Positions 2,449 through 27,642 of a stretch of DNA of 64,000 bases are shown here, in pieces. Both the position numbers and the translations under genes were made by a program. Source of the stretch: Desulfatiglandales bacterium (GTDB lineage: Bacteria > Desulfobacterota > DSM-4660 > Desulfatiglandales > Desulfatiglandaceae). The stretch spans positions 1,408,001 to 1,472,000 of the forward strand of contig OY762721.1 in the NCBI GenBank assembly GCA_963666345.1, written 5' to 3'. Every line of letters starts with the position of its first letter. Within the stretch, counting starts at the first letter, position 1. The notes beneath the pieces are model-generated. The model did not search any database and was not told the origin of the DNA. It saw nothing but the letters and a program-made list of their open reading frames with translations.

Positions 2449-3612
2449 ATGCCTAAGCAAAAGCGGTATAAAACAAAATATCCGGGGGTTTATTATCTAG
2501 ACGGAACATCAATTAAAGGTAAACCTGAACGTGTCTACTATATCCGTTACCGTAAAAACGGTAAACTAGTTGAGGAACCCGCTGGACGACAATCAAAAGA
2601 TGATATGACCCCAGCAAAGGCCAATAACATAAGATCAGAAAGAATCAAAGGGCACAGGAAATCAAACCGTGAAAAACGAGAAGCACTACTGGCCGAAAAA
2701 ATTGCTAAAGACAAAAAATGGACAATTGACCGACTGTGGAACTCTTACAAAAGTATCCGGATCCCTGGCAAATCATTGAACACTGATAAAGGCCGATATG
2801 ATAAATACCTTAAAGAAAAATTTGGGAAAAGAGCTCCAGAGGAGCTGAATCCCCTAGACGTAGACCGTCTGAGAATAAGTCTATTAAAGAAATTGGCACC
2901 ACAGACCGTGAAGCACGTGTTGAATCTTTTGACTTGGATAATTAACTACGGAGTCAAAAATGGTCTTTGCAAAGGCATACCATTCCATATAAAAAAGCCC
3001 ACTGTGGATAACGTAAAAACTGAGTACCTGACAGAAAAACAGACAAAATCCCTTCTAGCGGCCATTGAGAAAGACTCCAATACTCAAGTGGCAAATTTGA
3101 TGAAATTAGCCCTTTTTACGGGCATGAGACGTGGCGAGCTACTAAATCTGCGGTGGAAAGACATTGATTTTGATCGAGGCTTTATCACACTCAAAGATAC
3201 AAAGGGTGGAAAAGATCAAACAATCCCCATGAATGATACTACAAGACATATTTTGGATTCTCATCCGAAGGGGGACGGGGTTTATGTTTTTCCAGGGAGA
3301 TCGGGCGGAAAACGCGCTACAGTTGATGTGGCTGTCAATAAGATAAAGAAAGCTGCGGGTCTTCCCAAGGACTTCAGGCCCCTTCATGGCCTCAGACATG
3401 CTTATGCCAGTATGCTGGCTTCTAGCGGCAAAGTGGATATGTACACCCTTCAAAGGCTCTTAACTCATAAGGATCCTCGTATGACCCAAAGGTATGCTTT
3501 CCTTCGCGATGAGGCTTTAAAGAGGGCCTCCGGCTTGGCCGGGGATATAATTAACAACATGATCAAGGAAAATGATAAGAAGGTCTCTGATTTGAAAAAA
3601 GTGAGTACTTGA
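2449..3612 (+). CDS. tyrosine recombinase/integrase A
   Basis: TGMRRGEL, HGLRHAYAS and LTHKDPRMTQRY catalytic boxes; adjacent to the tRNA att fragment. Confidence 0.95.
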   Translation: MPKQKRYKTKYPGVYYLDGTSIKGKPERVYYIRYRKNGKLVEEPAGRQSKDDMTPAKANNIRSERIKGHRKSNREKREALLAEKIAKDKKWTIDRLWNSYKSIRIPGKSLNTDKGRYDKYLKEKFGKRAPEELNPLDVDRLRISLLKKLAPQTVKHVLNLLTWIINYGVKNGLCKGIPFHIKKPTVDNVKTEYLTEKQTKSLLAAIEKDSNTQVANLMKLALFTGMRRGELLNLRWKDIDFDRGFITLKDTKGGKDQTIPMNDTTRHILDSHPKGDGVYVFPGRSGGKRATVDVAVNKIKKAAGLPKDFRPLHGLRHAYASMLASSGKVDMYTLQRLLTHKDPRMTQRYAFLRDEALKRASGLAGDIINNMIKENDKKVSDLKKVST

Positions 3613-3803
3613 AGCAGCCTTAAGCAAAATAGAAGTCACTCATTTAATGAAGTTTATCTTTAAGCCTTATCTCGTAGCATTTATGTGTGTTACACCCAAC
3701 TGTTCTTGATCCTCCGACACCCTGCTCCCAAAGCTAGTAAATATAAATATTTATGATCCCTATACCCGTGACTGGCGGTGTGATTTCTAAAAAATGTCTT
3801 TCA

Positions 3804-6800
3804 TTACATATTTGGTTTTCGATCTTCAAAAGATTTTATTTTAATTTGTGAGTAAGGTTGAAAATGCATTGATTTTATTAAAGCGATTCCACTTTCCTGA
3901 CACATAATTATATCTTTAACGCTTTTTTGTTCCTTTTTGTTCGTAGTAAATTGCTTTGCGATTACACCGGCGTCAGCCTCTTCCAATGCGAGAACAATTT
4001 GGGTTCCAGCATTGGCAAAAATCGAGGGATGAAAATCCCTGGTTTCCTGTGAAGAGAGAATGAGCCCCATTCCGTATTTTCTGGCTTCTTTTACCAGGTC
4101 CGTGATCTTGGGATCATTGCAGAGTTTATGAGCCTCATCGATACAGACCATGACCCGCAGGTCCTTGGACATACCCTGAATGAGCATAGAAGAATAGATT
4201 TTTTCGAGCAGGAACCTGGATGCCGCCAACATCAGATCCTTAATCCCTGCGGTAAGCAGAATAACGGTGGTTTTCGTGAAAATGTCCTCAAAGCTGTATT
4301 GCGCTCTTCCCTGTTCAAATATCCCGCTTTCAAAAAGAGGCTGAAGCCGCACCTGGAGGTTACGAATCTGCCCGCCGGTTTCTTTTGACCAGCGATCCAA
4401 GATTTCCGAGAGCATCTCCAAGGTAGGGGGATTGCGATCATCTGGGGCCGGTTGATTCATCTCAAAGCCGGCATGCACATAGCACTCCTTTATTGCTTCG
4501 CGCAGTTTGCCAAGTTGGATATCTCCTGATCCGGAAAAGACTGAATTTAGCGTATCGGCAAGTCGGAACATCATTTCAACAGGCCTGCGCTTTTTTCCTG
4601 TTCTGGGATCGACGGGTATTTCAAAAGGATTGATGGGGAGCCCATCCATGACATCAAAAATCTGTGGCTTTACGGATTCATGAAAGTCCTCGGAGGCGTA
4701 TTCGCCTTGGAAATCGAGGATTATGGAGGGCACTTCTTGCCGATTCAGTTCGAAAAGCATGCTCTTCGTAGTTTCTGATTTTCCCGCACCGCTTTTGCCT
4801 ACAATCAAAAGGTGTTGATTGAGGAGGCGCTTGGGCTTTGTGGTTTTTGGGTCCCAATAGGCTTCTTTTCTTGAGGTGGTATCCACCCCAAGATAGACTT
4901 TTATCTCATCGTGTTTTTCCGGAATTTGTTCCGCCTTCTGTCTTGATGAAGCTTTCGTGGGTGGTGTGTCCTCAACTGGTTGGATTACTTCGTCTGGTAG
5001 CGGTTCCGGGACAGGAGACACCTGTGGTTGCTCTTCGGGGGGCTGATCTGTTGTTCCCGTCACTTCTTCGCCTGGTGTCTCTTCCCCTTCTGGTGACTCG
5101 GGACGCGATACTTTCTCAGATTTTTCCACTGATTCAGGCACTGGGGCAGAGGGAGAGGGCTCTTCCGTTCCGCCATTCGGTTCATCCGGTTCATCAAACC
5201 CATTATCCTCATCTATTGGAACATCCAGAAGGCTGGAAATAGCCCCACGTCCAAAAATCTTGATAATGTTCCCGTGAACCTCTTTTTCATCGATTTGCCC
5301 CCAGCTCGCACCATTGAAGATGTATCCTTCATGCCGGAATTGCACTTCACACGAGCCTGCGGCCGCAGCTTCAAGACCTTTCATGAATCCTGTAATGAGG
5401 TCTGTTTGCTGTTCCTCGGTTAGGTCCATCATAAATAGGCCATATCGGTGTGCACGCTCAAAATAGAAGAGGAGTATATTGGCCCATTCCTTGTTTTTAA
5501 TGGTGGCATCAAAACGAGCATTTCCGCCTCCCAAGTAATGATGCCGGAAATGCTGTTCCGTGCTCTTGTTTTTGTCCCGGATTTCTTCCTGCAATTGGTA
5601 AATCTGGGCCGGGCTAGAAGCTTTTCGATTCTTAACCTCGATGAGATCAACCTCAATCCTTCGGTCATTAAGTTTTACGAGCATCAGGTCGGTACGCTTG
5701 AGGGAAAGTTCTGAATTTTCCAATTCTTTCGGGGTCTGGTAAAAAAGCTCAATATGGCTGTCCACTGGAATGAGGACACGACCAGAAAGCCTTCCTTCAC
5801 GCTCCAGAGACAGGCGTGTTAGAGCCAGGCCAATCACTTCCTGGGCTTGGCTGGGGTTGTTGATGAGTTTCAATGCCAGTTTGCCGGAAACGGATTTGAG
5901 CATCTGGAGGACATAAGCTACCTTGGCTGTATCTATTACTTCGCCCACTGAGTCAGGGTCGTCTACAAGCAGGTCAATGAAGCCGGCCCTTAGGATGCTC
6001 TCAATTTCATGCTGGTGGAATGTGGAAATGACAAGCCTGTGGGCAACGGCATCCAAAAACTCCGGGGAATAATCAATCAAGTAACCGCTGTTTCCTGCAC
6101 CCGGTCCCTTGATAGGATCATCATAAAATTCTATTCCGAAATTCCGGTCAATAGTGAAAACCCAGTCAGAAGCTTGATGCACCTTGTCTAGCATACGCAG
6201 GTGGTTTTTTCCGTGCTCGTCGGTGAGCTCCAATTGAACAGTGATATATTTGTTCAAGGAGTTGGACCAGTCAAAAAAGCAGGCCGAAAAATGCGCCGCA
6301 AAATCCTGCCCTTGAAAGAGGCGAGCCGTATTCCCATCCGAAGCCAGGTCAGCGCAAGAGTTTGGAGCTATCATGCGGGACCAAGTTGCGGTGGTAGCTC
6401 CAGCATTATAGTCCGTCACATATTCGGTCAGCAAGTTGTTGAGAAAGGAACTGCCTCTGCTTCCCGTATGCTCGCGAGTGGAAACGGTGGTGCCGAAAAA
6501 GTCTATGACAAAGGTCAGGTGCGATTCGAACCTTCCCTCCTGGTCATCCAAAAGCTCCTCAATGGCGTGTTTTGCGTAGATCAGTTTGGGAAACAGAGGG
6601 TTCTCATTGGGGCTGAGAAGCAGTTCCTCGGTTTCGGACAGTTTCCTGCCAAACGTCCAGTCCTCACTGCTTTTTTGCAGGATGAACTCATCTAGGGCAT
6701 TTCCAATGAGCTGGTGTCGGGTACCCCGGGGAGCGAAAAATTTGATATCGAAATTGAGATTCTTGTAGAGATCCTTTGCAAGAAGAAGCTTGACTGCTTC

Positions 6801-9137
6801 AAGGATGAGGCCGCCATCTCCCGGGTTCACCACGTTCAATTTCATCGTCTGGACATAGGGATGATGGCAGAGGTAGCGCTCCATCTTATCGGCGATCTGC
6901 CGGGGTGTAACCGTTGATATGATGCCGTTTGCGGTCCCGGCCCCAAGAACCTGCATGGCTGCGTTCACAGCGGTGCGGAGATCCGGAGATTCCGAGTTGG
7001 GGTAGAACCCCCAAAAAAGCCCAAAATTGTCCGTGTTGACATAGGCTTCGGATTTTTTGGGGGAGATTGCGCTTGGGATATTCAGGGATGTCAATTTGTC
7101 CAATACATCTTCTTCTATGCACTGTTTGATTTCAGTGGGATTGAGCCCCTTCATCCGCCCGATCCACCCCCGAACCAATGTCTGATATTGAAAAAGCCAT
7201 AAGACCCGAAGAGGATGCGTCGGGGCTAGCAGGAGTACCTTCATTGGGCTCTCGCTAGGGCCAACCCGCATCAGCATCGTGTCGATTCTGTTCAGAAGAG
7301 AATAATCGTGGAGCAAGGTGTTGATTGCGCTCATTCCTTGGGCCGATTCCACCCGTTCTTTGAGCGCTTCCATCAGCTCCAGATACTTATCGATGTACTC
7401 GATGACCTCTTCCTCGAGTTCGTGGAGATCAACGACCTCAATAACACCCCTGCCATCGGCTTTGTCCCGAACAGAGATGAAAAACTTCTCACGAGCCTGG
7501 TAAAAGGCATCGGTAAGTTGGTTGACAGCGCTGGAAAGCCCTACGGGCTTGAAATCGTCGGCCTTGGCGCTCCTTTGATTGACTAGGTTGGCGTCATAGA
7601 TACCCAGAGTATTGGGATTTTCCAGGATTTTTCTTTCAAGGTCACGCAATACCGGGTTCAGGATAAGGTCGCCCCTGCGGTTGTTTGTCAACCGCACGGC
7701 ATACACGTAATCCCGCTTCAAATCCCATCCTTGGCTCCTGATCCCATACTCCTTGCCGGTTTGGTACATGACGTTGAACGGCAATTCGTCCAGGTGGCGG
7801 ATGCGTTGCCCCCTTTCGGTGGGCTGATCTTCAAAATCCTCCCCCTTTTCAATCCAGAATTGTTCACTTTCATCATTGGCATCCTGGATGGGCATCCCTG
7901 ATTTGGAGAGGCATTGAATGCGGATAGTGGCAACGCATTTTTCATCATCATCTAGGTTGTTGTCCGATATTGACACGGAAAAGGATTTTCGCTTGGCAGG
8001 TACGTATTGAGGCGGAATGACATCCATCTCGCCTTGGTCTTGGGTTTGGCGGACAACTGTCACTAGGTATCTACCCAGGTCAGGTGCCTGTGGAGGGCTT
8101 ACCTTCCAACTGATTCGAATGGGTTTTTTCCCGTCGCTGGTGAGTTCCCCTCCCTTGAGTGTCAAACCGCTAGCCACCTTTTCAGGTTTTTTAGGGTCTT
8201 GAAGCGGTTTCAACTCAATCCGAACACCTGAAATGGGCTGGGCGAACTTCCATTCATCAAAAGAAAGATTGGCCCGAATGCTTTCCTCGTGGCAGATGGG
8301 CGGGAGCCATGTTTTGGTACGAAGCAAGTTCTTGTCCGCCAAATAGGCCATCAACTCCTTGTGCCTTTCTTCATCAGCAAGCTCAGCCTCTACAATTAGG
8401 CGATGCAAATTTTGTCCCAGGCTCTTTTCTCCCTCTGTGAGGATCTCCATGCAAAGGCTGTTACGGGCCAGTTGAACGGAATAGATGTCCTGGTTCAAAC
8501 CAAAATCAGGAACCAGGTCCATCTCATACAGATAGGCCCCCGCTGTTTCCCAGGTTACGGATTGCTGGCTTTGTTCCTTTTGCCCTAAGATGGCCAGAAT
8601 AAAACGCACACGGTTCTGTACCGGCCTTCTTCGGATATCCACGTGGTAGAGAATGGCCTTGAGGATTTCTGCCTCTTGAGAGGGCAGTAGGTTTACCATG
8701 CCAATGAGGTGTCGCTCCAGGCAATTGGCCGCATCAAAGCTCTCTTCGTCATCGGTTTTGAATGTAGCCACATTTAGGGAATCTTCCTCGGCCAAACGCA
8801 GGCCGGAGGGGAACAGGGCACAAAAAACCTTGATGATGTCATAGGTAGAATCCTCGCGCAGTTTCACAGCGCCACTGCCACTAACCTCCCATGGTTCCGG
8901 GGTCTCTGATTTATCGGTTACGACCCTGCAGACGATCTTCTGGTTCTTAAGTTCCTGATCCTCGGAAAGGCTTTTGCCCAGCCCTTCCATAACAGGTCGG
9001 GGAAGAAAATCTAGCCGCTGGCAATGGCCTTGACCCTTTTGCAACAGAAAGGTCTTTAAGGTTTCGTAAAGGGCTTTTACGTATTCCGAATGGAGAATCG
9101 CGTCGTCCAGTTTATAAAGCGAAATTGCCGTCGCCAT
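3804..9137 (-). CDS. DptH/MAD8-like large protein: PD-(D/E)XK-like nuclease motif plus C-terminal HerA/DUF87-type ATPase
   Basis: 1777 aa; Walker A GKSGAGKS, Walker B CIDEAH, KEARKYG and SSQ motifs; RTDLMLV...DLIEVK nuclease-like motif; acidic Pro-rich linker before the ATPase. Confidence 0.75.
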   Translation of the reverse strand: MATAISLYKLDDAILHSEYVKALYETLKTFLLQKGQGHCQRLDFLPRPVMEGLGKSLSEDQELKNQKIVCRVVTDKSETPEPWEVSGSGAVKLREDSTYDIIKVFCALFPSGLRLAEEDSLNVATFKTDDEESFDAANCLERHLIGMVNLLPSQEAEILKAILYHVDIRRRPVQNRVRFILAILGQKEQSQQSVTWETAGAYLYEMDLVPDFGLNQDIYSVQLARNSLCMEILTEGEKSLGQNLHRLIVEAELADEERHKELMAYLADKNLLRTKTWLPPICHEESIRANLSFDEWKFAQPISGVRIELKPLQDPKKPEKVASGLTLKGGELTSDGKKPIRISWKVSPPQAPDLGRYLVTVVRQTQDQGEMDVIPPQYVPAKRKSFSVSISDNNLDDDEKCVATIRIQCLSKSGMPIQDANDESEQFWIEKGEDFEDQPTERGQRIRHLDELPFNVMYQTGKEYGIRSQGWDLKRDYVYAVRLTNNRRGDLILNPVLRDLERKILENPNTLGIYDANLVNQRSAKADDFKPVGLSSAVNQLTDAFYQAREKFFISVRDKADGRGVIEVVDLHELEEEVIEYIDKYLELMEALKERVESAQGMSAINTLLHDYSLLNRIDTMLMRVGPSESPMKVLLLAPTHPLRVLWLFQYQTLVRGWIGRMKGLNPTEIKQCIEEDVLDKLTSLNIPSAISPKKSEAYVNTDNFGLFWGFYPNSESPDLRTAVNAAMQVLGAGTANGIISTVTPRQIADKMERYLCHHPYVQTMKLNVVNPGDGGLILEAVKLLLAKDLYKNLNFDIKFFAPRGTRHQLIGNALDEFILQKSSEDWTFGRKLSETEELLLSPNENPLFPKLIYAKHAIEELLDDQEGRFESHLTFVIDFFGTTVSTREHTGSRGSSFLNNLLTEYVTDYNAGATTATWSRMIAPNSCADLASDGNTARLFQGQDFAAHFSACFFDWSNSLNKYITVQLELTDEHGKNHLRMLDKVHQASDWVFTIDRNFGIEFYDDPIKGPGAGNSGYLIDYSPEFLDAVAHRLVISTFHQHEIESILRAGFIDLLVDDPDSVGEVIDTAKVAYVLQMLKSVSGKLALKLINNPSQAQEVIGLALTRLSLEREGRLSGRVLIPVDSHIELFYQTPKELENSELSLKRTDLMLVKLNDRRIEVDLIEVKNRKASSPAQIYQLQEEIRDKNKSTEQHFRHHYLGGGNARFDATIKNKEWANILLFYFERAHRYGLFMMDLTEEQQTDLITGFMKGLEAAAAGSCEVQFRHEGYIFNGASWGQIDEKEVHGNIIKIFGRGAISSLLDVPIDEDNGFDEPDEPNGGTEEPSPSAPVPESVEKSEKVSRPESPEGEETPGEEVTGTTDQPPEEQPQVSPVPEPLPDEVIQPVEDTPPTKASSRQKAEQIPEKHDEIKVYLGVDTTSRKEAYWDPKTTKPKRLLNQHLLIVGKSGAGKSETTKSMLFELNRQEVPSIILDFQGEYASEDFHESVKPQIFDVMDGLPINPFEIPVDPRTGKKRRPVEMMFRLADTLNSVFSGSGDIQLGKLREAIKECYVHAGFEMNQPAPDDRNPPTLEMLSEILDRWSKETGGQIRNLQVRLQPLFESGIFEQGRAQYSFEDIFTKTTVILLTAGIKDLMLAASRFLLEKIYSSMLIQGMSKDLRVMVCIDEAHKLCNDPKITDLVKEARKYGMGLILSSQETRDFHPSIFANAGTQIVLALEEADAGVIAKQFTTNKKEQKSVKDIIMCQESGIALIKSMHFQPYSQIKIKSFEDRKPNM

Positions 9138-9140
9138 GAA

Positions 9141-10643
9141 TCAGTATTCCTCTCCCCAGGTTTTCTCAATTACTTCTCTGCCATCATTAATGGCCTTCAT
9201 GAATAGATTATGAGATCTGTTTTCTAATTCCTTTGCTTCTGCTCTTTTATTAAATGCACTGACAACAATATTATGAATTTGCTTACCATTATCTTTTGGC
9301 AATTTAATAGCGATTGATTCAAATTGAAAAGCTCTCAATCTTTTTTGAACTGAGCCATAAGATAATTTTTCCAATTGAATTTGACCGTACGGAGACGAAA
9401 GGAATGCATATAAAAAGCCTGAGTAAATCTTCCTATTATTCGGTATTAACCTCATAACATCCTGAGTCATAATCCAGCCCTCAAAATTTTTATATACGAA
9501 AAGCGTTCTACCAACTGTCCCACCAGAGCTAACCAATACCCATCCTCTTTTAACTCTTTCATTGTCAATATTCTTAGTCTTTGCAATTGAAATATAACTC
9601 AGGTTATTTTGTTGCATTTGGCACAAGCTCTTTCCACCTAGAAGAGGAACTCCATTTTCGTCTTCTTCAACATAAACTCTTTTTCTAAGGTTAGAGTCAA
9701 AAACATCTTCCAGTAGAAGGCCTAATTTTGCCCCCTCCTTTTGACGCAGAAGGTAATCCTGCAAGGCGCTTGATATGGGCTCATGGAAATTTGTGTCAAC
9801 CCTCAATTCGCCAAAATTTTCAACACTGCCAATCCTATTTCCAAAATTGACTGAAAATATCTCAGCATCAGTTTCTGCCTTTTCATCATAAGAAGACTTA
9901 AATCCTTCAATATCTGGTAAATTAAGTTGGGCTTGGACCTCCTGCTCCGCGTCATCCAAAAGTCGGTTGGCCTCCACGCGCAGATCACTGGTTTTTTTTA
10001 CCAAGCGGGTTAGCTCTTCACGAAGCCGAAGAGGGAGCTTTGGAATGGGAAGCGGACCGACATCCTGTTCATAAATATGCGAAACTACTGATCCAGATTG
10101 GCTTCTTTTCAATAAAAATTGTCCTGGAGGGCTTTGAAAAAGACAGTATAATGTCCCTATCTGGTCAGTAAATTTGGCCCTAACTCTGAGAGCATCAACT
10201 GTGACTGCCCAGTTATCCATCCTTTCATCAACTATTCTTATATTACCAACACTCCCTGACATGGAAATTAAAATCATGTCTTTTTTTACAATAAAAAAAT
10301 CGACATTTTTTGTTCGTGATTTTGATAAATAAAGATTGGGCGTAGGCCTAATCTCCATCATACCGGAGGTATTCAGATAGGGTATTCCCAGTTCTGGATC
10401 TTTTACAAAAACCCTTGTTTGAACGCCATACCATTTAACATCTGCAAAATCATTTATTGTCTTTATCTGAAATCCTGACTGTCGCATTGCCTGCACTGAG
10501 CGGTATCCCTCAGATGCGTAAAATCCCGCCTCCATACGGTGCGGAGGAGAGTAAATCGCTCCACTGTTCAACGCATAGGTTTCGGCCCGGCATCGATTCC
10601 GGACAGACTCATGCGGCCAGTACATCGCTGGTTCAGCTCCCAT
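9141..10643 (-). CDS. restriction-modification specificity subunit (HsdS/MAD5-like, two TRDs)
   Basis: Two TRD-like repeats (DMILISMSGSVG; WVLVSSGGTVG...YAFLSSPYGQIQL..GSVQ) separated by a helical spacer. ATG 10643 with GGAGG RBS overlapping the MTase stop is preferred over 10790. Confidence 0.8.
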   Translation of the reverse strand: MGAEPAMYWPHESVRNRCRAETYALNSGAIYSPPHRMEAGFYASEGYRSVQAMRQSGFQIKTINDFADVKWYGVQTRVFVKDPELGIPYLNTSGMMEIRPTPNLYLSKSRTKNVDFFIVKKDMILISMSGSVGNIRIVDERMDNWAVTVDALRVRAKFTDQIGTLYCLFQSPPGQFLLKRSQSGSVVSHIYEQDVGPLPIPKLPLRLREELTRLVKKTSDLRVEANRLLDDAEQEVQAQLNLPDIEGFKSSYDEKAETDAEIFSVNFGNRIGSVENFGELRVDTNFHEPISSALQDYLLRQKEGAKLGLLLEDVFDSNLRKRVYVEEDENGVPLLGGKSLCQMQQNNLSYISIAKTKNIDNERVKRGWVLVSSGGTVGRTLFVYKNFEGWIMTQDVMRLIPNNRKIYSGFLYAFLSSPYGQIQLEKLSYGSVQKRLRAFQFESIAIKLPKDNGKQIHNIVVSAFNKRAEAKELENRSHNLFMKAINDGREVIEKTWGEEY

Positions 10644-12792
10644 TAGCCCCTCCATTTTTAAGAAAGTCATGGTAGGCCTTGGCGACAAACGGCAGGTCAT
10701 CATCCACCATGCGGCCGTATTCATCCACTTCCGGCAGGAATTCATATACGCCGGTGTTCTTACATTGTTCATGGAGGTCCTTGCCTTCAAAGCTGCGGAA
10801 GTGGTTCAGTTCAGTGCCGTCGGCATCGCGCTTGAATACCTGGTTACCCCGCCTGTCCTTACCCACCTTTTTGGCGATAGCCATGAAGATTTTATAGTCA
10901 AGGGGCTTTCCGGCAAAACTTTCCTGGTTCAGTTCCTCCGTGGATTTGCGCCGCAAAAAGACCAGATGAGTCTGGATGCCCACCTTGGGGAGGAAAAGCT
11001 CCACCGGCATGCCGACCAGCGCGAGGACCTGACAATGGCGCAGAATCCATGCCCGGATGTATTCATCATCTGGATTTCCCAGTATGCCGTTGGGAAGAAC
11101 GATGCAGCACTTGCCCTTGCCGGGTTTCAAGAGGCGCACCACCCGCTCAATGAAAAGGATTTCCGGGGCTACCCCTTTCTGCATAACACCGGTCTTTTTC
11201 CAAAGCCTTCGTTCCTTGTCGTATTTCCATTTGAAACCCAGATCGTAGCGCCCCAGGATTTCTTCGGAGTCGATCTTAATTTTGGTTCCAAATGGGGGAT
11301 TGGTGGCGATGATGTCAAAGGCCCCCTCCTGGATCTCGGCCTTGAAGTGCTGCTCCACAGGAACTTCTTCAACAGTGACGCCGTCCTGTTCCCACCGTTT
11401 CATTGTGCCCTTTGGAAATTCCCATCGGTCCTGGTCCACTTCCAGTCCATTCAAATGGGTGACGCCGCCCTGGCCGTCGTTGTTCATGACCATGTTCATG
11501 CGGGCAACGCGGACAAGGTTTGGATTGACGTCCAGACCATAGATTTCCTGAGACACAAGTCTCAGGCGACGGATGAACTCCTCTTCCAGACTTTCGTCGC
11601 TCAAGCCTTGGCTTTGCAGGTCCAGCCGAATCTGTTCTGCTATGTAGTTTAGGATGACCACGACGAATCCGCCGGTGCCGCAAGCAGGGTCTATGCATTT
11701 GTCACCAGGCTTGGGGTCCAGCATACGGATGCCCATCTTCACAGCGTTTCGTGGAGTAAAAAATTCCCCACGTGTGCCTTCCAGGTTTTTTCCCACGATT
11801 GCTTCGTAGGCTTCTCCTTTGACATCCACGGAGGAATTCAGAAAATCGTAATGGGCGAGCTGGGCCACCACATAAACGATAATTCTGGGAGAAAGGTCTA
11901 TAGTATCTGCCTGGAAACCGAAAAGCTCTGGATAGCGGGAGCGCACCCGGTCATAGAGTTCATCCACTCGGGCCTTGACGGCCTGGGCTTTGGCGGGGTC
12001 GTTGCGCTCTTCCAGGCTGACGATCTTGAACAGGCCTTCCGCTTCGGGCGTGCCCGGTTCCGCTGCCTGCATCTGGCGTTCATCCTCGATCTTGGCAAAA
12101 ACGATCTTGAGAAACTCCCAGAAAACAGCTTCATTGGAGCCCCCACGCATCGCATAAATATAGTCATGGCAACGGCGAAAGGCTTGGCGCAAGGAACCGG
12201 AGACCGCTTTGCGGAGCTTCTTTCTGCCCGGTGCAAAGCTGTCTTCCAGGTCCTTGCCGAAACGCGGGATATCATTGATGAGAAGGGTCCGGGTTTTTAT
12301 GGCATCCGTCTTTTTCCAATAGACGATTCGCTCGGTGCCGTTGGTCCAGACGGCGTATTCCGCGGCCGGCGTATCCCGCAGGAATTCAGCCAGGCACCCG
12401 GCCCCTTTTTTGGAATCGTCGGGCTTGGTTTTGGAAGGGAGAATGTCTATCAGAATATACAGGCGTTCCTGGATGTTTTTGGAACCCTTGTTCCCATTCA
12501 AAACCAACAGAGAAAAATTTTTCGCTTTCAACTGGCGAGGTTTGACGCGGATATTCCGGCGTATGAGGTCCTTGTAGTCGGCATCCTCATATCCGAACTC
12601 CTCCAGGAGTTTCCGTTCCTCCTCTTGCCGATGGGATTCCTTTTCGTTGAGCTTGACAGCCTCTCCAGTGATGAGATCGGCAACCATCCCGTCGCTGATC
12701 TCATCATCCGAATCCTGCTCAAGCACCTCGGGTTCTTCGTTTACATTTTTTTCTTTAGCCTTGGGAGGCCGTCCTCTTTTTTTAGCGACCAT
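10633..12792 (-). CDS. N6-adenine DNA methyltransferase (type I M/MAD2-like) with N-terminal HSDR_N-like domain
   Basis: GEFFTPR, DPACGTGGF (motif I), TNPPFG (motif IV), VLPNGIL. Confidence 0.92.
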   Translation of the reverse strand: MVAKKRGRPPKAKEKNVNEEPEVLEQDSDDEISDGMVADLITGEAVKLNEKESHRQEEERKLLEEFGYEDADYKDLIRRNIRVKPRQLKAKNFSLLVLNGNKGSKNIQERLYILIDILPSKTKPDDSKKGAGCLAEFLRDTPAAEYAVWTNGTERIVYWKKTDAIKTRTLLINDIPRFGKDLEDSFAPGRKKLRKAVSGSLRQAFRRCHDYIYAMRGGSNEAVFWEFLKIVFAKIEDERQMQAAEPGTPEAEGLFKIVSLEERNDPAKAQAVKARVDELYDRVRSRYPELFGFQADTIDLSPRIIVYVVAQLAHYDFLNSSVDVKGEAYEAIVGKNLEGTRGEFFTPRNAVKMGIRMLDPKPGDKCIDPACGTGGFVVVILNYIAEQIRLDLQSQGLSDESLEEEFIRRLRLVSQEIYGLDVNPNLVRVARMNMVMNNDGQGGVTHLNGLEVDQDRWEFPKGTMKRWEQDGVTVEEVPVEQHFKAEIQEGAFDIIATNPPFGTKIKIDSEEILGRYDLGFKWKYDKERRLWKKTGVMQKGVAPEILFIERVVRLLKPGKGKCCIVLPNGILGNPDDEYIRAWILRHCQVLALVGMPVELFLPKVGIQTHLVFLRRKSTEELNQESFAGKPLDYKIFMAIAKKVGKDRRGNQVFKRDADGTELNHFRSFEGKDLHEQCKNTGVYEFLPEVDEYGRMVDDDLPFVAKAYHDFLKNGGANGS

Positions 12793-12802
12793 ATATCCTC
12801 GT

Positions 12803-14563
12803 TCACGCAGCCTGACTCGGCGTGGTTATTTCTCCCTCATAGATTATGAAGCGGGGTGCAATGACCTGAGAGTTGGAGGCGTCGGCCAGATCGGTGAAAA
12901 AACCGAGTTGGCGAAGCCTTGTTTTGAGAGCATCAAAATTATCTGCCATACCGCGGTTTACCTGCTCCTGTTCAGGCCGATCCTGTGATAGGCTCAGGCG
13001 GTCAATGAGCAGTCCGTATCTGGCTGCGAGCCAGTCCACAAACTGGCGGATGGGAATGGGCCTAGTCTGAAATTTGCCATCGTTTTTTCTTTGCTCCAGG
13101 ACCGCTAACTGAATCAGGACCTCCATCAATTCGTTTCCCAATACAAAGCGGCGCTTGACACGGCCTTTGCCGGCCAAAAAGCCATATTCCTGGTCTATGC
13201 CGCAAAGCCCCGCGATGAGCTTACGATGTTGCTCCCGCAGGGTGCCATACTGGAAATGAACTAAAATTTCCACGAACGTCTCCAGCTTATTGAGATTTCT
13301 TTTTTGGCAGACATCAATGATGCGTTGCACCTCTTGGTTTATCTCGCCGGTTTCGGGGTCCCTACAACTTTCAATGACCTGCTGGATGTCCCGGTTGAAA
13401 TATCCATTAATATCGGAGTGATCTCGAAAGCCCTGCAACAAAAGGGTGGCGAACCGCTTTCCACTTTGATTCCTCTGTTCCTGAGTCAGATAGGATTCCG
13501 CAAACTCCTCTAGTTTTTTAAAAAAATAAGCAGAGCGGAAATAGGCTTCCAATTCCTTAAAAAACTCCATGTAACATCGTTCGCTAAGGCTTTTCACCAC
13601 CGGATCATTGCCGTTGGTCATGTCACAGAACAGGTCTAGATCAAAAGGGGCGTGTGTCCGAGCTTCCCCCACGGAAGGCACATCGCCGCGAGAAGACGGG
13701 AATTTGACGTTGGCGACAAGGTAGTTCGTGATTTTCACCACCTGGAAAACGTAAAGTGCCGTGTGAAAGACCATCAATGTGGTCATATAATTGATCAATT
13801 CGCGCCTTGGGATAAAGTTTTTATAAAGAAAAAGGAGCTTGAGATCCTGTCGTAAGAGGTCAATCTGCTCAGGGCACAGAAAAGAAAAGATTGGGACCGA
13901 ATCTTCTCGTCTGCTGCTAAATTTATCCACATCAAAGGGCTCGGTGAGGCGAAGTAAAAACAATAGTTCCACATCCAGGCGTTTGGCCTGCGCCAGATCC
14001 TTTAGTTTGTTTTCATCGATTCTCAAATCTGTATCCCCGTGAAACTTGACCCCCATTCCGAAAAATTCCCGCAAAAGTGAATCCGGGTTGCTGTAGAGAA
14101 TGGGATCTTCCTGGAGCACGTTGAACAGAAAATCGCTCAAGTAGCGATCCTGGCGTTTTACACGGGGGTTGAACAGCTTGATGACGGAAAAATGAAGGGG
14201 CCTTAGGCCGGACATGCGATATTGCCCGCCCTTGGCTTTACCTTTGCGAGCCATGAGCGCAAAGTGTGATTCCACCCATGATGTCACGAGATTCCTGCGC
14301 TCTTCATTATCCATGCCTCGGAGCGTGCTGGGATTTAATGAAAGCACCGCATCCACAACGGCTTTTGGGGTTTCGGCATCCGTTGAGTCACTGGTGAAAA
14401 CCGTTTTGTCGGTGCGTATGATTTGCCTACCGTTAGTTCGAAGATAGACAAAAAGGCGGCTTATAGCTTCTTCAATATCGATATTGTTGGCGTCCAAAGG
14501 CAAAATTTTGTTCGTCTTGAAAAGTTTCTGCTGCCTCGTCAGGAGGTTTTTTGGGTTCGGCAT
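12803..14563 (-). CDS. DptG/MAD7-like defence protein
   Basis: 586 aa; C-terminal FVDWLAARYGL...NFDALKTRLRQLGFFTDLADA resembles the DptG/MAD7 terminus; operon position fits. Confidence 0.65.
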   Translation of the reverse strand: MPNPKNLLTRQQKLFKTNKILPLDANNIDIEEAISRLFVYLRTNGRQIIRTDKTVFTSDSTDAETPKAVVDAVLSLNPSTLRGMDNEERRNLVTSWVESHFALMARKGKAKGGQYRMSGLRPLHFSVIKLFNPRVKRQDRYLSDFLFNVLQEDPILYSNPDSLLREFFGMGVKFHGDTDLRIDENKLKDLAQAKRLDVELLFLLRLTEPFDVDKFSSRREDSVPIFSFLCPEQIDLLRQDLKLLFLYKNFIPRRELINYMTTLMVFHTALYVFQVVKITNYLVANVKFPSSRGDVPSVGEARTHAPFDLDLFCDMTNGNDPVVKSLSERCYMEFFKELEAYFRSAYFFKKLEEFAESYLTQEQRNQSGKRFATLLLQGFRDHSDINGYFNRDIQQVIESCRDPETGEINQEVQRIIDVCQKRNLNKLETFVEILVHFQYGTLREQHRKLIAGLCGIDQEYGFLAGKGRVKRRFVLGNELMEVLIQLAVLEQRKNDGKFQTRPIPIRQFVDWLAARYGLLIDRLSLSQDRPEQEQVNRGMADNFDALKTRLRQLGFFTDLADASNSQVIAPRFIIYEGEITTPSQAA

Positions 14564-14574
14564 TGAACTCTCCT

Positions 14575-16419
14575 CTATAGGGCCGTGAGCGTGACGCCGT
14601 TTTGTGGTGTCCGTTTCAGCTTGTAAACCTGGTAATCCGTTTCCGTCAGAAGAAGCTCTTCTGACGGAATGGACATGAGCTGCTTTTTGAACATGAGGAG
14701 GTTGAGAAAAAAGGTCCGCATCTCGCCCGCTGTGGGCAAATAGCCCTCCCGGATGCGCATGAGCATTTCATAAAGGTCCAGGGATATCTCGAGGTCAATA
14801 GTTCGAGGGTCATGGCGGAACAGAATGCTGGAGGGAAGGTATTCAATATAGGCCGCTTGTCTTCCCGCCGGTGTTAGTTGGAGGCTGAAATCCGTTGCCG
14901 GATAGGTGAAAAAGCCCTTTACTCGGGCTCGCAGGTCCTGCCGTGTGCGAATGCAAACATTTTCTCTGCCTCGCTGGAGATCGTAAATGCCTTCTGATCG
15001 GCTGATTCCTTCGATAATCTTTTCTTTCAGTTCATCATCCTCATCTTGTCCTGTGGCTATAAAGCTTAAGAATTCCGGAATATTGTCATAGGGCAGCAAC
15101 TCTTCCCAAAGAATGTTCTCCGATCCGGTCAAGGCCTCTCGATTGCCTTCAAAAAAAAGCTTACGCCGCAGGGTGACCACATAACGCCGGGCTGCGTTTA
15201 AGGCATCTTGAGTTCTCTCTTCCGGACTCATAGGGCGCTGGTTATACAGACGGAGAAGACCCTCCTCGTCTATACGGGTGCGCCCCAAATGGGTGATCCG
15301 GTCATTGGTGTATTCCAAAAACAACTTTCTGCATTCCAGGTTTGTGGGGCGTGTGAAGCTCAAACGTGAATCTATATTGGGCGTGCTGGCCTTACCCACG
15401 TCAAATTCTCGAATGTACTCTAAAATGCGGTCTTTTTCATAATCGCTGAAAATCGCATTGTAATAATAACGATCCGTAAAATCTGCGACTCCTGACTGGA
15501 TCTCCTGTTTGATCTGTGCGCAGGTCTTTTTACCAAAGATGGCAAAAGCCAAAATAGAGCGCAGATCGCGAACGGTAACATGGATCCGTTTCCGGAAATG
15601 GAGAATTTGAAAGATCGCCTTCAAGCGAGCCCTCGCCTTGCGCGCGGCCTCGTTTCTTTCGGTTGTGGCTTCGGAATCACGACCGGAAAGCCCATCATTG
15701 GGAAAATAGCGAAAAGTGTCGACATTAAACTTTACGGGACACTTTGCGCGCGCAACGCAGGAATCACAATCCGCCCAGAATTCATTAGCAACGTAACGGT
15801 CTAAAATATTGTCAAAAAGGCACTCGCCGAGATTACTTGTGGCATCTACGACAGATCGAAGATTCAAGTTGACGACTACGATATCTTCTGAAAGAGGTCC
15901 ACCTTTTAAGAGATGGTCGAGCAAAGTAGCGCTTAACCAAGGATGTTCTGTGCTGTTTGAGAGGAAATCCCGGAGTTTTCCTTCATTCATGGCAATGATA
16001 AGACGCTCACCAACTTCACATGGTGATTGGCCTTCAAACGGCTTAAAAAAATCAGAAAGCATTTCTAGATTGGTTTTCCCTTGGGCTTCAACGGAACCAT
16101 CATACAGCGTTCGGAATGTTTTCCCGGACACCTCAAAGGTTGAGCCAATCGAGTCTATCCTATTTATGGTTGCCCCTTGCCTTTTAGCTAACTTTTCCAA
16201 CATCTGGATAAAGGCCGTTTTTCCATCTCCAGCATTTCCGGTTAGTATGACAAGGCGGAAGCGACCTAGAAGGATCGCCGGGGCCAAATCCGTATCCAGT
16301 CTGGTCTGCACATAGGTTTTACGAGCCAACTCGGTTTCAAGTCCACGAGTCAACCCATTCCCCGCGTCAGACTGGCTGTAAAACATCAAAAAGCCGTCAA
16401 GATATCTGTTGTAGCCCAT
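14575..16419 (-). CDS. DptF-like P-loop protein (resembles the C-terminal half of MAD6, without kinase domain)
   Basis: YSQS..GN..TRGL...TYVQTRLD, LVILTGNAGDGKT Walker A, IIAMNEGKLRDFL, CxxC...CPVKFN, VTVRDLRS. Confidence 0.75.
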   Translation of the reverse strand: MGYNRYLDGFLMFYSQSDAGNGLTRGLETELARKTYVQTRLDTDLAPAILLGRFRLVILTGNAGDGKTAFIQMLEKLAKRQGATINRIDSIGSTFEVSGKTFRTLYDGSVEAQGKTNLEMLSDFFKPFEGQSPCEVGERLIIAMNEGKLRDFLSNSTEHPWLSATLLDHLLKGGPLSEDIVVVNLNLRSVVDATSNLGECLFDNILDRYVANEFWADCDSCVARAKCPVKFNVDTFRYFPNDGLSGRDSEATTERNEAARKARARLKAIFQILHFRKRIHVTVRDLRSILAFAIFGKKTCAQIKQEIQSGVADFTDRYYYNAIFSDYEKDRILEYIREFDVGKASTPNIDSRLSFTRPTNLECRKLFLEYTNDRITHLGRTRIDEEGLLRLYNQRPMSPEERTQDALNAARRYVVTLRRKLFFEGNREALTGSENILWEELLPYDNIPEFLSFIATGQDEDDELKEKIIEGISRSEGIYDLQRGRENVCIRTRQDLRARVKGFFTYPATDFSLQLTPAGRQAAYIEYLPSSILFRHDPRTIDLEISLDLYEMLMRIREGYLPTAGEMRTFFLNLLMFKKQLMSIPSEELLLTETDYQVYKLKRTPQNGVTLTAL

Positions 16420-16894
16420 ACCCCCCCCCTGACAATCTGCAATTATGGCAACTTTTCAACTTAAAAACAAATAACTTTTTACAAAAATAAATAATAATGT
16501 CAATGCCATCACAAAAAAATATAGCTTTGCATAAGATGGCATAATGGGCTGCATCAAAAGATATTATCTGATTTTACACTCACAGGCAGGATATAAGTGG
16601 GATAGAAAATCTAAAGTGAGTCTATATTATTGAATTAATGCAAATATTAATAAAAATGTTGTTCAATCCTTTTAATAATCTATGTGTTAAAATATTTATT
16701 CTTTTTTGACAAAATAGCTGTTATTATGAATATAATGAATTATAAATATTTTGTATCGTCTTATACTTTTATGTTACAAAATCGTTATACGTTATTTATC
16801 AAAAATTGCAGAATGCCATACCTATCGTCATCCTTACTCTAGAACTATGTGACGTTGCAACTGAGGCATAGGATATGCAGGAAAAATCCAAATT

Positions 16895-17515
16895 ATGAAA
16901 AAGCCATCCAAATTAAAATATCCAAATTTTGAAGCTAAGTATCCATGGTTGTCTATTCTCTTTAAAGCTTACTATAGGAATGATGTGGGCATATATAAAG
17001 AACTGAAGATATTTACCAAAGAGTCAAGACGAAAAATAGCCTGCAAAAAAGGCTGTTTTACTTGTTGTTTAAATCCTGTCGTTCCAATAACCCTGATAGA
17101 ATTAATGGGAATTTCATGGTATATATCAGAAATAATAGACGATTTTGCAATACGAGAACAACTTAAAGGTCAAATGTTGCAAAATAAAGAGACTCCTGTC
17201 TGTCCTTTTCTTATAAATAATGAATGTTCCATATACCCGATCAGGCCCATAGCCTGCAGAGAATTCTTTATGACTGGATTACCCTGTAGGCCAAATGAAG
17301 ACCCAATCGTTTCTAGGCCTAATGACATTTGGTTTCCGTCCAGGAATATTGCGAGGAAGACTGCAATGGAGCTTTTATCTTTTTACGACTTCCAAACTGA
17401 CACCGAAAAGCTTCGAGCATATGAAGCTGGATATATTTCTCAGAATTCAAGCGATATGCATTCAATTGATTGGTCTCAAATGATTTCAACTATGAATCTA
17501 TTTGAAACTGCATAA
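16895..17515 (+). CDS. YkgJ family cysteine-cluster protein (putative integron cassette)
   Basis: CKKGCFTCC and CPFL...CSIYPIRPIACR; AT-rich; stop codon lies within the attC R'' box. Confidence 0.85.
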   Translation: MKKPSKLKYPNFEAKYPWLSILFKAYYRNDVGIYKELKIFTKESRRKIACKKGCFTCCLNPVVPITLIELMGISWYISEIIDDFAIREQLKGQMLQNKETPVCPFLINNECSIYPIRPIACREFFMTGLPCRPNEDPIVSRPNDIWFPSRNIARKTAMELLSFYDFQTDTEKLRAYEAGYISQNSSDMHSIDWSQMISTMNLFETA

Positions 17516-19080: not shown

Positions 19081-20044
19081 TCAATTGGTTCTATCCGTGG
19101 CAATCTCCAGTGCCCTTTTGTTCAGGCTTGCACCCTCTCCGTACCATAAGCTACTGAGCGTGTTATCCTGGCACTCACCCCGGAAGTAGTTCAAATACTC
19201 ATTTACGGCATTGTAGGCTCCCCAGTAGGTCTTTCCTGCCATTCGGCTGCCCCGGCCATATTCAAAAAGTCTGACCACTCTGGGCACAATTTTTTCCTGT
19301 TTCTGCTGTGCCGGGGTTCTGTCCCTTTCCTTGAGACAAAAGACCAGCCGTATATATTTGACAAGTTCTGCGCTGTTTACCTGTTTGGATGCAAGACGTT
19401 TGTATCGATCCACTGTTGCAACAAATTCTTGCTGGGCAAGATCGATCGTATCCCGTATGTCTTCAAGGGTTTCAAGCACGCCTTTGATATGACTTTGCTC
19501 GGAGAAGCTTGCTTGCTTTAGACTCATGGGCAAGACAGAGGGTGTTGTTGCATACCACACGGATCGGGCGTAAATCCTACTGCGCACGGCAAGACTTCCG
19601 TCATGGGAGCTGGAAAGAAGGATATAGTGCTCCAGGATGTCTTCTTTGCCCCACGCTCATGGGATCCCGTTTGATCTTGGCAAGGACCCAGATCCTTGAG
19701 CCTCCTTTGAGGCTGCCAGCCGTCTCGATAGTCGCCTCGCCACTCTCAAGGAAAGGCTGAAACCATTTAAAAGCATCAATGTTTTGAAGGGGCTCATAGT
19801 CTCTTCCCACTATCCCGAGCACTTTATTGTCGCTGGTCCTGCAGGTAACATAACTGCCTATGATGCACAGATGTTCATTTTTCTGACCCTCGGTGAATAG
19901 ATGGCGAAGCTCCACGTCCCAGTTAAGCCCGGCAGCAACTATTGCTTCTTCAATGCTCAATTTGCTTCCTTCCGGTACTGGGACCCCTAAGCCATGCCAG
20001 GGAGTTTTTCCGACATACATCATGCTTTCCACATCATTTGCCAT
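19081..20044 (-). pseudogene. DUF932/DUF945 phage-plasmid protein, frameshifted
   Basis: MANDVESMMYVGKTPWHGLG, ETAGSLKGG and TYWGAYNAVNEY. The middle motif SSHDGSLAVRVGFTPIRVVCNNTL can only be read through several single-base indels at about 19500-19650. Confidence 0.85.
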
Positions 20045-20072: not shown

Positions 20073-20366
20073 TTAAGATCTGGGAGAGACCTCCTTTCTT
20101 ATTTTTTCACCTGCCGCCTTTTCAGCAAGACCGAGGTCATGGTCCATTTGAAGGCCTAGCCAGTATTCAGGTTTATTATTGAAATACCTGGCGAGCCTCA
20201 GGGCCGTATCCGCGGTTATCCTTCTTTTGCAAAGGACGATCTCATTAATACGCCTAGGCGGGACATGAAGGGCGATAGCCAGCTGATTCTGGTTGAGATT
20301 AAGCGGTTTAATGAATTTTTCCAGCAAAATCTTTCCTGGGTGCACAGCTGTATTTTCCTGATTCAT
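20073..20366 (-). CDS. higA: HigA family antitoxin (Xre HTH), no cognate toxin adjacent
   Basis: HPGKILLE...RINEIVLCKRRITADTALRLARYF...YWLGLQ. Confidence 0.9.
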   Translation of the reverse strand: MNQENTAVHPGKILLEKFIKPLNLNQNQLAIALHVPPRRINEIVLCKRRITADTALRLARYFNNKPEYWLGLQMDHDLGLAEKAAGEKIRKEVSPRS

Positions 20367-23272: not shown

Positions 23273-23529
23273 GTGAGCCGTAGTGAAACATATACGCCTA
23301 ATAGTAGGACGAAACGACTACGGTTATGACCCATTAATAGTCTGTTGCAGATCAAAAATCTATTCTCGAATGCAGCTTTCGTGGTCGAGCCACTTCAGTT
23401 CCACGATGTCTGCCACGGAGAGCTTGATCTCTCCAGCGTCTTGCATGCGCACAGGGATAGGATCTTCCGACTTCAAAGTCTCGGCATCGATCAACCATCA
23501 GCTAATATCCTCTTATTGGATCTTGAGAT

Positions 23530-26180: not shown

Positions 26181-26296
26181 CCCCGACTATCATGCACTAT
26201 CGAGAGAGCGCGCCCACACCGGGATCTCTCTGGACAGACTGCTAACAGGAAAACTATAAGTGAATTGGATATGCAAAAGACCGGTGGACCATTACA

Positions 26297-27499: not shown

Positions 27500-27642
27500 C
27501 TCAGGGCACATGCAGAGTGGTTCCCAGGTGTCCGGGAGTCAGGTTGAATGAAGCTCGCTAGGGACGCAGTTTTGGCCCATGGCATCTTGCAACAGAATTT
27601 TATCCATGAGGTGATTCCATTAAGTAGGGGGTCCTTAAAGAT

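Follow-up and report, generated by a model that had tools for sequence, protein, structure and literature searches.

We describe a five-gene operon, here called F-G-M-S-H after the order of its genes, in a 64,000-nucleotide stretch of DNA from a Desulfatiglandales bacterium (contig OY762721.1, positions 1,408,001 to 1,472,000; this whole stretch is referred to below as the window). The operon occupies window positions 3804-16419 on the minus strand and consists of five intact, tightly packed genes, and we consider it probable that it encodes a self-contained, methylation-based restriction-modification defence system: a kinase-free, rearranged form of the methylation-associated defence system (MADS), in which a methyltransferase (M) and its specificity subunit (S) are coupled to an effector of the DndFGH type and not to HsdR. 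MADS reportedly comprises the genes mad1-mad8 and was described from Pseudomonas aeruginosa SMC4386 by Maestri et al. in 2024. F-G-M-S-H resembles both MADS and DndFGH but has neither the MAD6 kinase that characterizes the former nor the phosphorothioate (PT) modification that characterizes the Dnd systems. It is a conserved short form of MADS that current family models do not catalogue, and it extends known families without introducing a new principle.

The original prediction, made from this DNA before any database search, had proposed an operon of this gene order and these gene sizes, with an F-like protein free of a kinase and with M and S lying between a G-like and an H-like gene. The coordinates, gaps and motifs (Walker A, NPPF and D-ExK) are all present, and the profile and structure matches reported below agree with the proposed identities of the five proteins. 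Neighbouring genes are separated by 11 nt (F/G), 10 nt (G/M) and 3 nt (S/H). The genome is a single contig of 4.16 Mb, 96.7% complete. PADLOC was used as individual hidden Markov models, not as system-level rules. Positions of genes and motifs are collected in Table 1.

Assignment of the five gene products

F matches the PADLOC SspF profiles over nearly its full length (3.1e-33, 7.5e-27 and 3.8e-24) and the DndF profile at 3.2e-11. It has no match to PADLOC mad6, to any NCBIfam family or to a kinase family in Pfam, and a sequence search of the PDB with the profile of a 25-sequence F alignment also gave no match. The cysteine cluster of F is a probable Zn-binding insert in the lid of the P-loop domain, which fits the Zn-chelating lid insert that Rakesh et al. 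report for some DndF proteins in the passages available to us (PMC10853773).

The relation of F to MADS is seen by comparison with G040, a genome of the same phylum in whose locus MAD2, a second MAD2-like protein, MAD5, MAD6, MAD7 and MAD8 all score above their NCBI cut-offs. MAD6 of G040 has 1379 aa, of which the NCBIfam model covers residues 1-621 and the PADLOC model residues 143-802; the stretch covered by the models is the NERD, pseudokinase and kinase half, which is PglW-like. F residues 4-611 align with residues ~788-1369 of this protein at 33% identity. Because the whole of F aligns to the C-terminal half of MAD6 only, F is, by this alignment, the DndF-type core of MAD6 minus the NERD/kinase half. 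None of the five proteins matches PADLOC mad6 or NCBIfam MAD6, and the sole hit of the mad6 model in the whole genome is to a kinase domain without relation to the operon, ~190 kb outside the window. No MAD1 or MAD3/MAD4 gene was found inside the operon; genome-wide, the mad3 model was discarded as uninformative, as it matches every ABC-type ATPase.

G exceeds the cut-off of the NCBIfam MAD7 model (NF047733; 426.8 bits, cut-off 410) and matches PADLOC mad7 at 3.7e-31. A sequence search of the PDB with G gave no match, so G was further assigned by its fold. The predicted model (predicted local distance difference test score, pLDDT, 89.7; predicted template modelling score 0.91) matched a single solved structure, DndG (7exx), with a Foldseek E value of 2.5e-5 against 0.39 for the runner-up, and VIA aligned 399 of 440 residues to 7exx_A at Z 18.2, with the runner-up at Z 4.5. 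The model thus gives G the DndG fold.

M matches Pfam N6_Mtase (1.1e-33) and, in PADLOC, MTase_II (1.7e-141) and mad2 (7.4e-53). Its best NCBIfam family is MAD2 (654.7 bits, cut-off 720), with hsdM at 40.8 bits, and the NPPF motif is found in 12 of the 13 methyltransferases of related F-G-M-S-H loci. For S the best NCBIfam family is MAD5, matched in two stretches (331.4 bits, cut-off 400), and Pfam Methylase_S likewise matches in two stretches. The longest open reading frame (ORF) of S, 9141-10790, would give 549 aa from a TTG at 10790 and would overlap M by 158 nt. In the same frame, an ATG at 10643 is preceded by GGAGG 7 nt upstream, overlaps M by 11 nt including its stop, and gives a product of 500 aa, and the S proteins of relatives have 463-532 aa; S most likely starts at this ATG because of the spacing of GGAGG, the short overlap with M and the size range of its relatives.

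The C-terminal part of H matches the PADLOC profiles DndH (8.3e-48) and mad8 (1.2e-23) and the PDB entry 7es4_A, the C-terminal domain of DptH (E 1.1e-15). Over ~1470 aa H is 26-27% identical to MAD8 of G040, and its full-length relatives are 1705-1789 aa long. The DndH profiles find no sequence match in H beyond the HerA domain. Residues 640-1400 were modelled (pLDDT 73.2), and VIA aligned 171 residues of the model to 1jqd_A (Z 12.3, root-mean-square deviation 3.4 Å) and matched it to many other S-adenosylmethionine (SAM) methyltransferases, while Foldseek gave E 3.8e-5 to a methyltransferase-like fold. The catalytic pattern [NDS]PP[FYW] is absent throughout H. The putative nuclease motif, D...ExK, is invariant in a 29-sequence alignment of both the kinase-free and kinase-fused architectures and conserved in another alignment, which has 31 sequences, and D1150 and E1167-V-K1169 sit on consecutive beta-strands of the predicted model. 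The part of Rakesh et al. (PMC10853773) available to us gives the domain order of DndH as target-recognition domain (TRD), inactive methyltransferase, restriction endonuclease and HerA/FtsK. H appears to follow this domain grammar: the HerA domain is seen by sequence and a methyltransferase-like fold without a catalytic motif by modelling, and the endonuclease is putative. A complex prediction of S with H residues 640-1119, run without controls, scored 0.00 and is taken neither for nor against docking of the methyltransferase-like module on S.

Table 1. Features of the F-G-M-S-H operon and its borders in the window.
Feature	Positions	Strand	Description	Evidence
F	14575..16419	-	stand-alone DndF/SspF-like P-loop protein, 614 aa	profile matches
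Walker A GNAGDGKT of F, residues 61-68	16216..16239	-		G61-T68 invariant, 25-sequence alignment
CxxCx5C cluster of F (C218, C221, C227)	15739..15768	-		invariant, 25-sequence alignment
G	12803..14563	-	MAD7 / DndG-like DNA-binding protein, 586 aa	NCBIfam, PADLOC, predicted fold
M	10633..12792	-	gamma-class N6-adenine DNA methyltransferase, MAD2-like, 719 aa	Pfam, NCBIfam, PADLOC
Motif I DPACGTGGF of M	11665-11691	-	SAM-binding	
Motif IV NPPF of M, residues 498-501	11290..11301	-	catalytic motif	
S	9141..10643	-	MAD5-like specificity subunit, two TRDs, 500 aa from ATG 10643	NCBIfam, Pfam
H	3804..9137	-	DndH/MAD8-like multidomain effector, 1777 aa	PADLOC, identity to G040 MAD8
N-terminal domain of H, residues 37-247	8397..9029	-		NCBIfam MAD8 65.9 bits, under cut-off 175
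Class I methyltransferase-like Rossmann fold with large insert, H ~719-1043	6009..6983	-		predicted model
PD-(D/E)xK-type motif D1150...E1167-V-K1169 of H	5631..5690	-	putative restriction nuclease site	
HerA/FtsK-type ATPase of H, ~1394-1730	3948..4958	-		7es4_A; Pfam DUF87/HerA, TrwB
Walker A GKSGAGKS of H	4776-4799	-	HerA/FtsK ATPase	
Upstream region of F	16420..16894	.	AT-rich intergenic, divergent neighbour	GC 0.364
Tyrosine integrase	2449..3612	+	convergent with H; not a member of the system	Pfam Phage_integrase 3.7e-30

Conservation of the arrangement and its relation to known systems

Searching a protein collection with F, with lengths up to 1075 aa eligible, gave 520 matches at E <= 1e-5. 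Among the 120 of these matches listed, none carries a kinase family and none is longer than 650 aa, and 95 (the window protein included) are 593-650 aa long with 52-100% identity. The original prediction had considered that F might be a truncated copy of kinase-bearing homologues; because the listed homologues are all kinase-free and short, stand-alone F is a conserved architecture and not a truncation. It had also suggested a search for conserved synteny, which was made by a locus scan with a 25-homologue F alignment and one genome per species; of 424 relatives the best 80 were kept, giving 76 loci.

In 61 of the 76 loci F is fused to a kinase, in the order M-(second M or other)-S-KF-G-H, where KF is the fusion. 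The other 15 have a stand-alone F, 14 of them in the order F-G-M-S-H (L021 is cut after M) and the fifteenth, L044, in the canonical order with a split kinase plus F. As the same order recurs in 14 of 76 related loci, F-G-M-S-H is not a chance juxtaposition. The 14 loci span at least seven bacterial phyla plus one metagenome-assembled genome (MAG) labelled as an archaeon. Their hosts are Geobacteraceae, Chromatiaceae (two, including the isolate Halochromatium glycolicum DSM 11080), Magnetococcales, Bacteroidota (five), Ignavibacteriota, Chloroflexota, Atribacterota, Spirochaetota and the archaeon-labelled MAG; Thermodesulfobacteriota and Pseudomonadota are also among the phyla. No gene upstream of F is conserved among the 14 loci and the window (one locus pair shares one ORF), and none downstream of H among five loci and the window; the unit is therefore exactly five genes.

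Across loci all five proteins sort into the same three tiers of identity, which for F are 54-63%, 37-40% and 31-36% and for M 63-68%, 42-44% and 33-38%. A quick maximum-likelihood tree (IQ-TREE) built from the F core places the 15 kinase-free rows in one clade (Shimodaira-Hasegawa-like approximate likelihood ratio test 98) and the kinase-fused rows in two, of 9 and 50; with two outgroups that are themselves N-terminally fused and on long branches, the tree does not settle the order of the three clades.

A survey of 1.84 billion representatives gave 880 proteins with a match to F at E <= 0.001, of which 244 reach E <= 1e-30; the best 150 of the 880 include ~11 full-length stand-alone F proteins, and most are fusions of ~1300-1440 aa. 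A kinase domain was found in 14 of the 22 shorter or intermediate representatives scanned. Single-kinase F forms of 880-1000 aa were considered as intermediates, and the one traced further, P0124, is a 5'-truncated gene call: the longer contig L107 has a full NERD/kinase-F, followed by G and H, and shows that the P0124 call is incomplete. Among the eight plasmid records matching F none has the kinase-free form; in seven the match lies under genes annotated as kinase or NERD, and one record is without annotation.

The kinase-F of L035, L037 and L038 is identical in MAGs labelled Omnitrophota, Lentisphaera and unclassified bacterium, as is that of L064 and L068 in MAGs labelled Geobacter and Syntrophobacteraceae, which reflects either very recent horizontal transfer or mis-binning. 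The F-G-M-S-H locus of the archaeon-labelled MAG (L023) shares 74-78% identity in F, G, M and H with that of a Spirochaetia MAG (L093), through either cross-domain transfer or an error of binning or labelling. In the phylum of the window, L016 (G021) and L018 (G184) have F cores behind other long N-terminal regions, in proteins of 1558 and 1366 aa. G follows F in both, H is also present in G021, and no M or S is detectable in the stretch fetched; these may be methylase-free FGH systems as described by Rakesh et al.

With MADS the operon shares homologues of MAD2, MAD5, MAD7 and MAD8 and the C-terminal core of MAD6, as well as a self-mark that is presumably N6-methyladenine (m6A), a large HerA-type effector and a setting in a mobile or defence island. 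Unlike MADS, it lacks the NERD and Ser/Thr-kinase part of MAD6, MAD1, the MAD3/MAD4 pair of OLD-like ATPase and Toprim nuclease, and the inactive second paralogue of the methyltransferase, and its gene order is F-G-M-S-H instead of M...S-(kinase-F)-G-H. Its proteins are 24-38% identical to those of kinase-type loci. The MacSyFinder detection model for MADS in the preprint text available to us (10.1101/2023.03.30.534895) makes MAD6, MAD7 and MAD8 mandatory and MAD2 and MAD5 accessory, and F-G-M-S-H falls outside this rule because MAD6 is mandatory and the MAD6 models cover the kinase half only. For the same reason detection rules demanding MAD6 will miss the five-gene subtype. A full match to an already defined system, which the original prediction had allowed for, was not found among the MADS family models: of the five proteins G alone reaches the cut-off of its model, MAD7, and there is no MAD6.

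In many loci of the canonical MADS type a further MAD2-like gene lies between M and S (L033, L034, L037, L042, L048 and others, e.g. L014:6358-8391). The pattern [NDS]PP[FYW] is absent from all 25 of these second paralogues with at least 600 aa and present in all 46 primary M proteins, and the second copy appears to be an inactive methyltransferase subunit that is conserved. In G040 this second protein scores 808 bits, above the NCBIfam MAD2 cut-off.

The likeness to DndFGH/DptFGH/SspFGH lies in a P-loop F with an augmented lid, the predicted DndG fold of G, and an H that combines a motif-less methyltransferase-like module, a D...ExK motif and a HerA/FtsK ATPase, the last with a match to the solved C-terminal domain of DptH. 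In contrast to DndFGH, dndC and dndD are missing from the genome, M and S lie between G and H, and the presumed mark is m6A and not PT. The gamma-class N6-adenine methyltransferase and the two-TRD S, whose TRD region diverges among close relatives, are as in Type I restriction-modification, as is an ATP-dependent motor-nuclease for the presumed restriction arm. In Type I, however, that arm is HsdR, which is missing from this genome and would be replaced by a three-protein FGH with a HerA/FtsK-type motor, and M has an additional N-terminal region of ~300 aa. BREX type 2/Pgl is also methylation-based, and its PglW shares the NERD, pseudokinase and kinase half with canonical MAD6 according to the portion of PMC12839542 available to us; this shared part is absent from F-G-M-S-H, as is any PglZ, PglX or BrxC homologue. 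MANTIS (Gao_RL), an 11-gene 'MADS-like' system, and an Erwinia dnd/dpt island with a class I methyltransferase were also compared and are different systems.

We found no account of a kinase-free F-G-M-S-H in the literature covered, which did not include the final MADS paper and two supplements that may list it. The available text of the MADS preprint (10.1101/2023.03.30.534895) mentions 'multiple subtypes' only generally, gives its 'MADS-like' system as one of 11 genes, and contains the word 'Dnd' 0 times. Rakesh et al., in the main-text passages of PMC10853773 available to us, list NERD and kinase fusions of DndF, call DndFGH stand-alone, and make no mention of a linked active adenine methyltransferase or S subunit.

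Mark, specificity and mode of action

Neither hsdR (TIGR00348, 0 matches genome-wide at E <= 1e-5) nor dndC (TIGR03183) nor dndD (TIGR03185) was found in the window, as the original prediction had noted for HsdR and the dnd genes, or in the whole genome. These results bear on the possibility that the operon is a PT-dependent DndFGH/SspFGH module that recognizes PT marks made by genes at other sites of the genome, a view with which the SspF-like and DndH-like profile matches of F and H and the DndG fold of G would agree. We find it the least credible of the explanations considered, given the missing dndC and dndD (sspABCD was not specifically searched for, and the negative result for PT genes covers dndC and dndD) and the absence of both genes from three of five other F-G-M-S-H genomes, with the two genes unlinked to the locus in the remaining two.

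A homologue of M stands beside FGH in 63 of the 76 loci. Of the 13 loci without M, 11 have less than 1.8 kb upstream of F, mostly up to a contig end, and the other two (L039 and L041) have 7.6 kb upstream of F in which no M or S was detected. Judged by gene linkage, the association with methylation is general in this branch of FGH. The same linkage is an argument against an explanation that we regard as unlikely, though it deserves to be weighed: that FGH is a stand-alone effector activated by a trigger, as Rakesh, Aravind and Krishnan hold for DndFGH, sensing phage nucleotides or proteins through F, with M-S as a protective, addictive or independent epigenetic partner, so that restriction would not be aimed at unmethylated sites. 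For a trigger-activated FGH speak the occurrence of DndFGH without dndABCDE in most taxa, as given in the accessible part of PMC10853773, the intact nucleotide-binding site of F, and a TRD-like/methyltransferase-like module of H that is conserved whatever the S. Against it, 11 of the 13 loci without M have almost no sequence upstream of F, M and S are embedded in the F-G...H operon and either overlap their neighbours or stand 3 to 11 nt from them, the same identity tiers recur in all five genes, and epigenetic variants of phages escape canonical MADS, as stated in the available preprint text (10.1101/2023.03.30.534895).

An accidental union of two unrelated systems, in which an orphan Type I M+S that had lost HsdR was inserted into a DndFGH-like operon, would account for the generic Type I-like domains of M and S and for the deviant GC (guanine plus cytosine) content over the S region. 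We give it very little credence, as the insertion point between G and H is identical in 14 loci of many phyla, the MAD2-like and MAD5-like scores far exceed those for hsdM and hsdS, hsdR is absent from the genome, and M and S accompany FGH in canonical MADS-type loci too, in another order.

Pairs of closely related loci indicate where sequence specificity lies. Between L052 and L069 identity is 84% in F, 87% in G, 88% in M and 86% in H and falls to 46% in S, with 22-36% in the first TRD region of S; between L023 and L093 the values are 74% (F), 78% (G), 78% (M), 77% (H) and 41% (S). Variation of H between close relatives is confined to a low-confidence linker at ~1250-1350. Because it is S that diverges, with F, G, M and H remaining similar, which is the Type I pattern, specificity is most likely set by S and not by the TRD-like inserts of H.

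A probable course of action for the methylation-based restriction-modification system proposed above can be outlined from these assignments. M and S would act as a Type I-like methyltransferase that places m6A on a bipartite site picked by the two TRDs of S, and this mark would label host DNA as self. F, G and H may assemble as an FGH complex by analogy with DndFGH, in which F would be a nucleotide-binding P-loop sensor with a Zn insert, G a DNA binder of DndG fold, and H an inactive methyltransferase-like module joined to a PD-ExK nuclease and a HerA/FtsK motor. The complex would then translocate along unmarked DNA and nick or cut it. Restriction would take its specificity from the M-S module or its mark and not from the TRD-like inserts of H, and we infer that the mark read by FGH here is m6A in place of PT. 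MAD3/MAD4, which are OLD-like, and the kinase and NERD domains of MAD6 would be add-ons outside this core.

The following weighs against this proposal. The function of F-G-M-S-H loci is inferred from sequence. M, S and H all fall under the NCBI cut-offs of MAD2, MAD5 and MAD8, and one of the 13 related methyltransferases, that of L032, is without an exact NPPF. The evidence for the nuclease of H is its motif, because the methyltransferase-like domain filled the structural match lists. In two of the five other F-G-M-S-H genomes dndC and dndD are present, on other contigs. DndFGH is presented by Rakesh et al., in the portion of PMC10853773 available to us, as stand-alone and sensor-triggered, with no need for coupling to a modification. 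The accessible part of PMC13662399 reports that the MAD3/MAD4 nuclease module is essential to defence in canonical MADS, and for this reason a system without MAD3/MAD4 may work differently or more weakly.

What is reported for canonical MADS in the available preprint text (10.1101/2023.03.30.534895) is that it protects P. aeruginosa from four phages, that epigenetically modified phages escape it, that mad2-4 and mad6-8 are required, and that cells do not survive deletion of mad5 except when mad2 or mad3 has been deleted as well. The portion of PMC12904381 available to us still lists the restriction mechanism of MADS as unknown. With eight genes and two nuclease modules, canonical MADS is hard to dissect; a natural minimal form with five genes, one candidate nuclease site, no kinase and a spread over many phyla defines the core parts. 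It also joins the MADS and Dnd literatures through the frequent linkage of FGH to an adenine methyltransferase (63 of 76 loci).

A broader claim, which we hold tentatively and with less than even confidence, is that F-G-M-S-H represents a distinct class of ATP-dependent restriction-modification, in which M-S both writes and reads the site, a HerA-motor nuclease replaces HsdR, and FGH units are modification-agnostic cassettes. If true, evolution has plugged FGH cassettes into either PT marks (Dnd, Ssp) or m6A marks (MADS and the five-gene form), the MADS kinases and MAD3/MAD4 are dispensable, and the five genes are a minimal system for finding out how FGH senses an unmarked site.

Surroundings of the operon in the window

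The intergenic region upstream of F is likely the promoter region of the operon; a promoter and terminator scan of 3500-17000 gave match counts not above those of shuffled sequence, and no site is claimed. The divergent genes beyond it encode a CxxCxxCC protein and a YaaC-like protein. None of the ORFs flanking the operon matches a PADLOC family, and their Pfam families are unrelated to the system. The GC content of the operon is ~0.48-0.53, falling to 0.385 over S (9001-10000) and to 0.36-0.40 at both borders; the low value of the S gene is consistent with horizontal acquisition or exchange of TRDs.

The integrase next to H and a second one at 33718-34893 are paralogous tyrosine integrases, 63% identical, and the window also holds an integrase fragment (1777-2208) and a D5-type primase/helicase gene (30873-32717), which points to at least two integrated elements in tandem. 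No tRNA gene was found in the window by ARAGORN. That integrase genes lie on both sides of the operon, in surroundings with many mobile and candidate defence genes, could be taken to mean that the operon is an addiction or stabilisation module of an integrase-flanked island, acting by post-segregational killing and not mainly in phage defence, and the lethality of a mad5 deletion alone in canonical MADS (available text of 10.1101/2023.03.30.534895) points the same way. We nevertheless consider this a very unlikely main role: the 14 related loci have no conserved flanking genes in common, because of which F-G-M-S-H is taken to travel on its own, and restriction-modification systems often do both, so that an addiction module overlaps with a defensive restriction-modification system more than it competes with it.

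Other genes of the window include a DUF932 gene at 19081-20044, split into two adjacent ORFs that cover profile positions 1-57 and 106-207 and probably a pseudogene, with an HTH_3 regulator (20073-20366) adjoining it. A plus-strand cluster at 22193-29040, without relation to F-G-M-S-H, encodes two radical SAM proteins (one with a B12-binding domain), a PfkB-type kinase, a ROK-family protein and a 488-aa protein without assignment. Nearby candidate defence genes are those for an SMC-like AAA_27 ATPase of 1167 aa with weak LmuB/AriA matches and an adjoining metallophosphatase, an SbcCD-like pair (35302-40057), and for proteins matching PADLOC PDC-S01 (2.7e-79; 40543-41712) and PDC-M19B (3.3e-56; 44081-44893), and the window appears to be a defence-island region.

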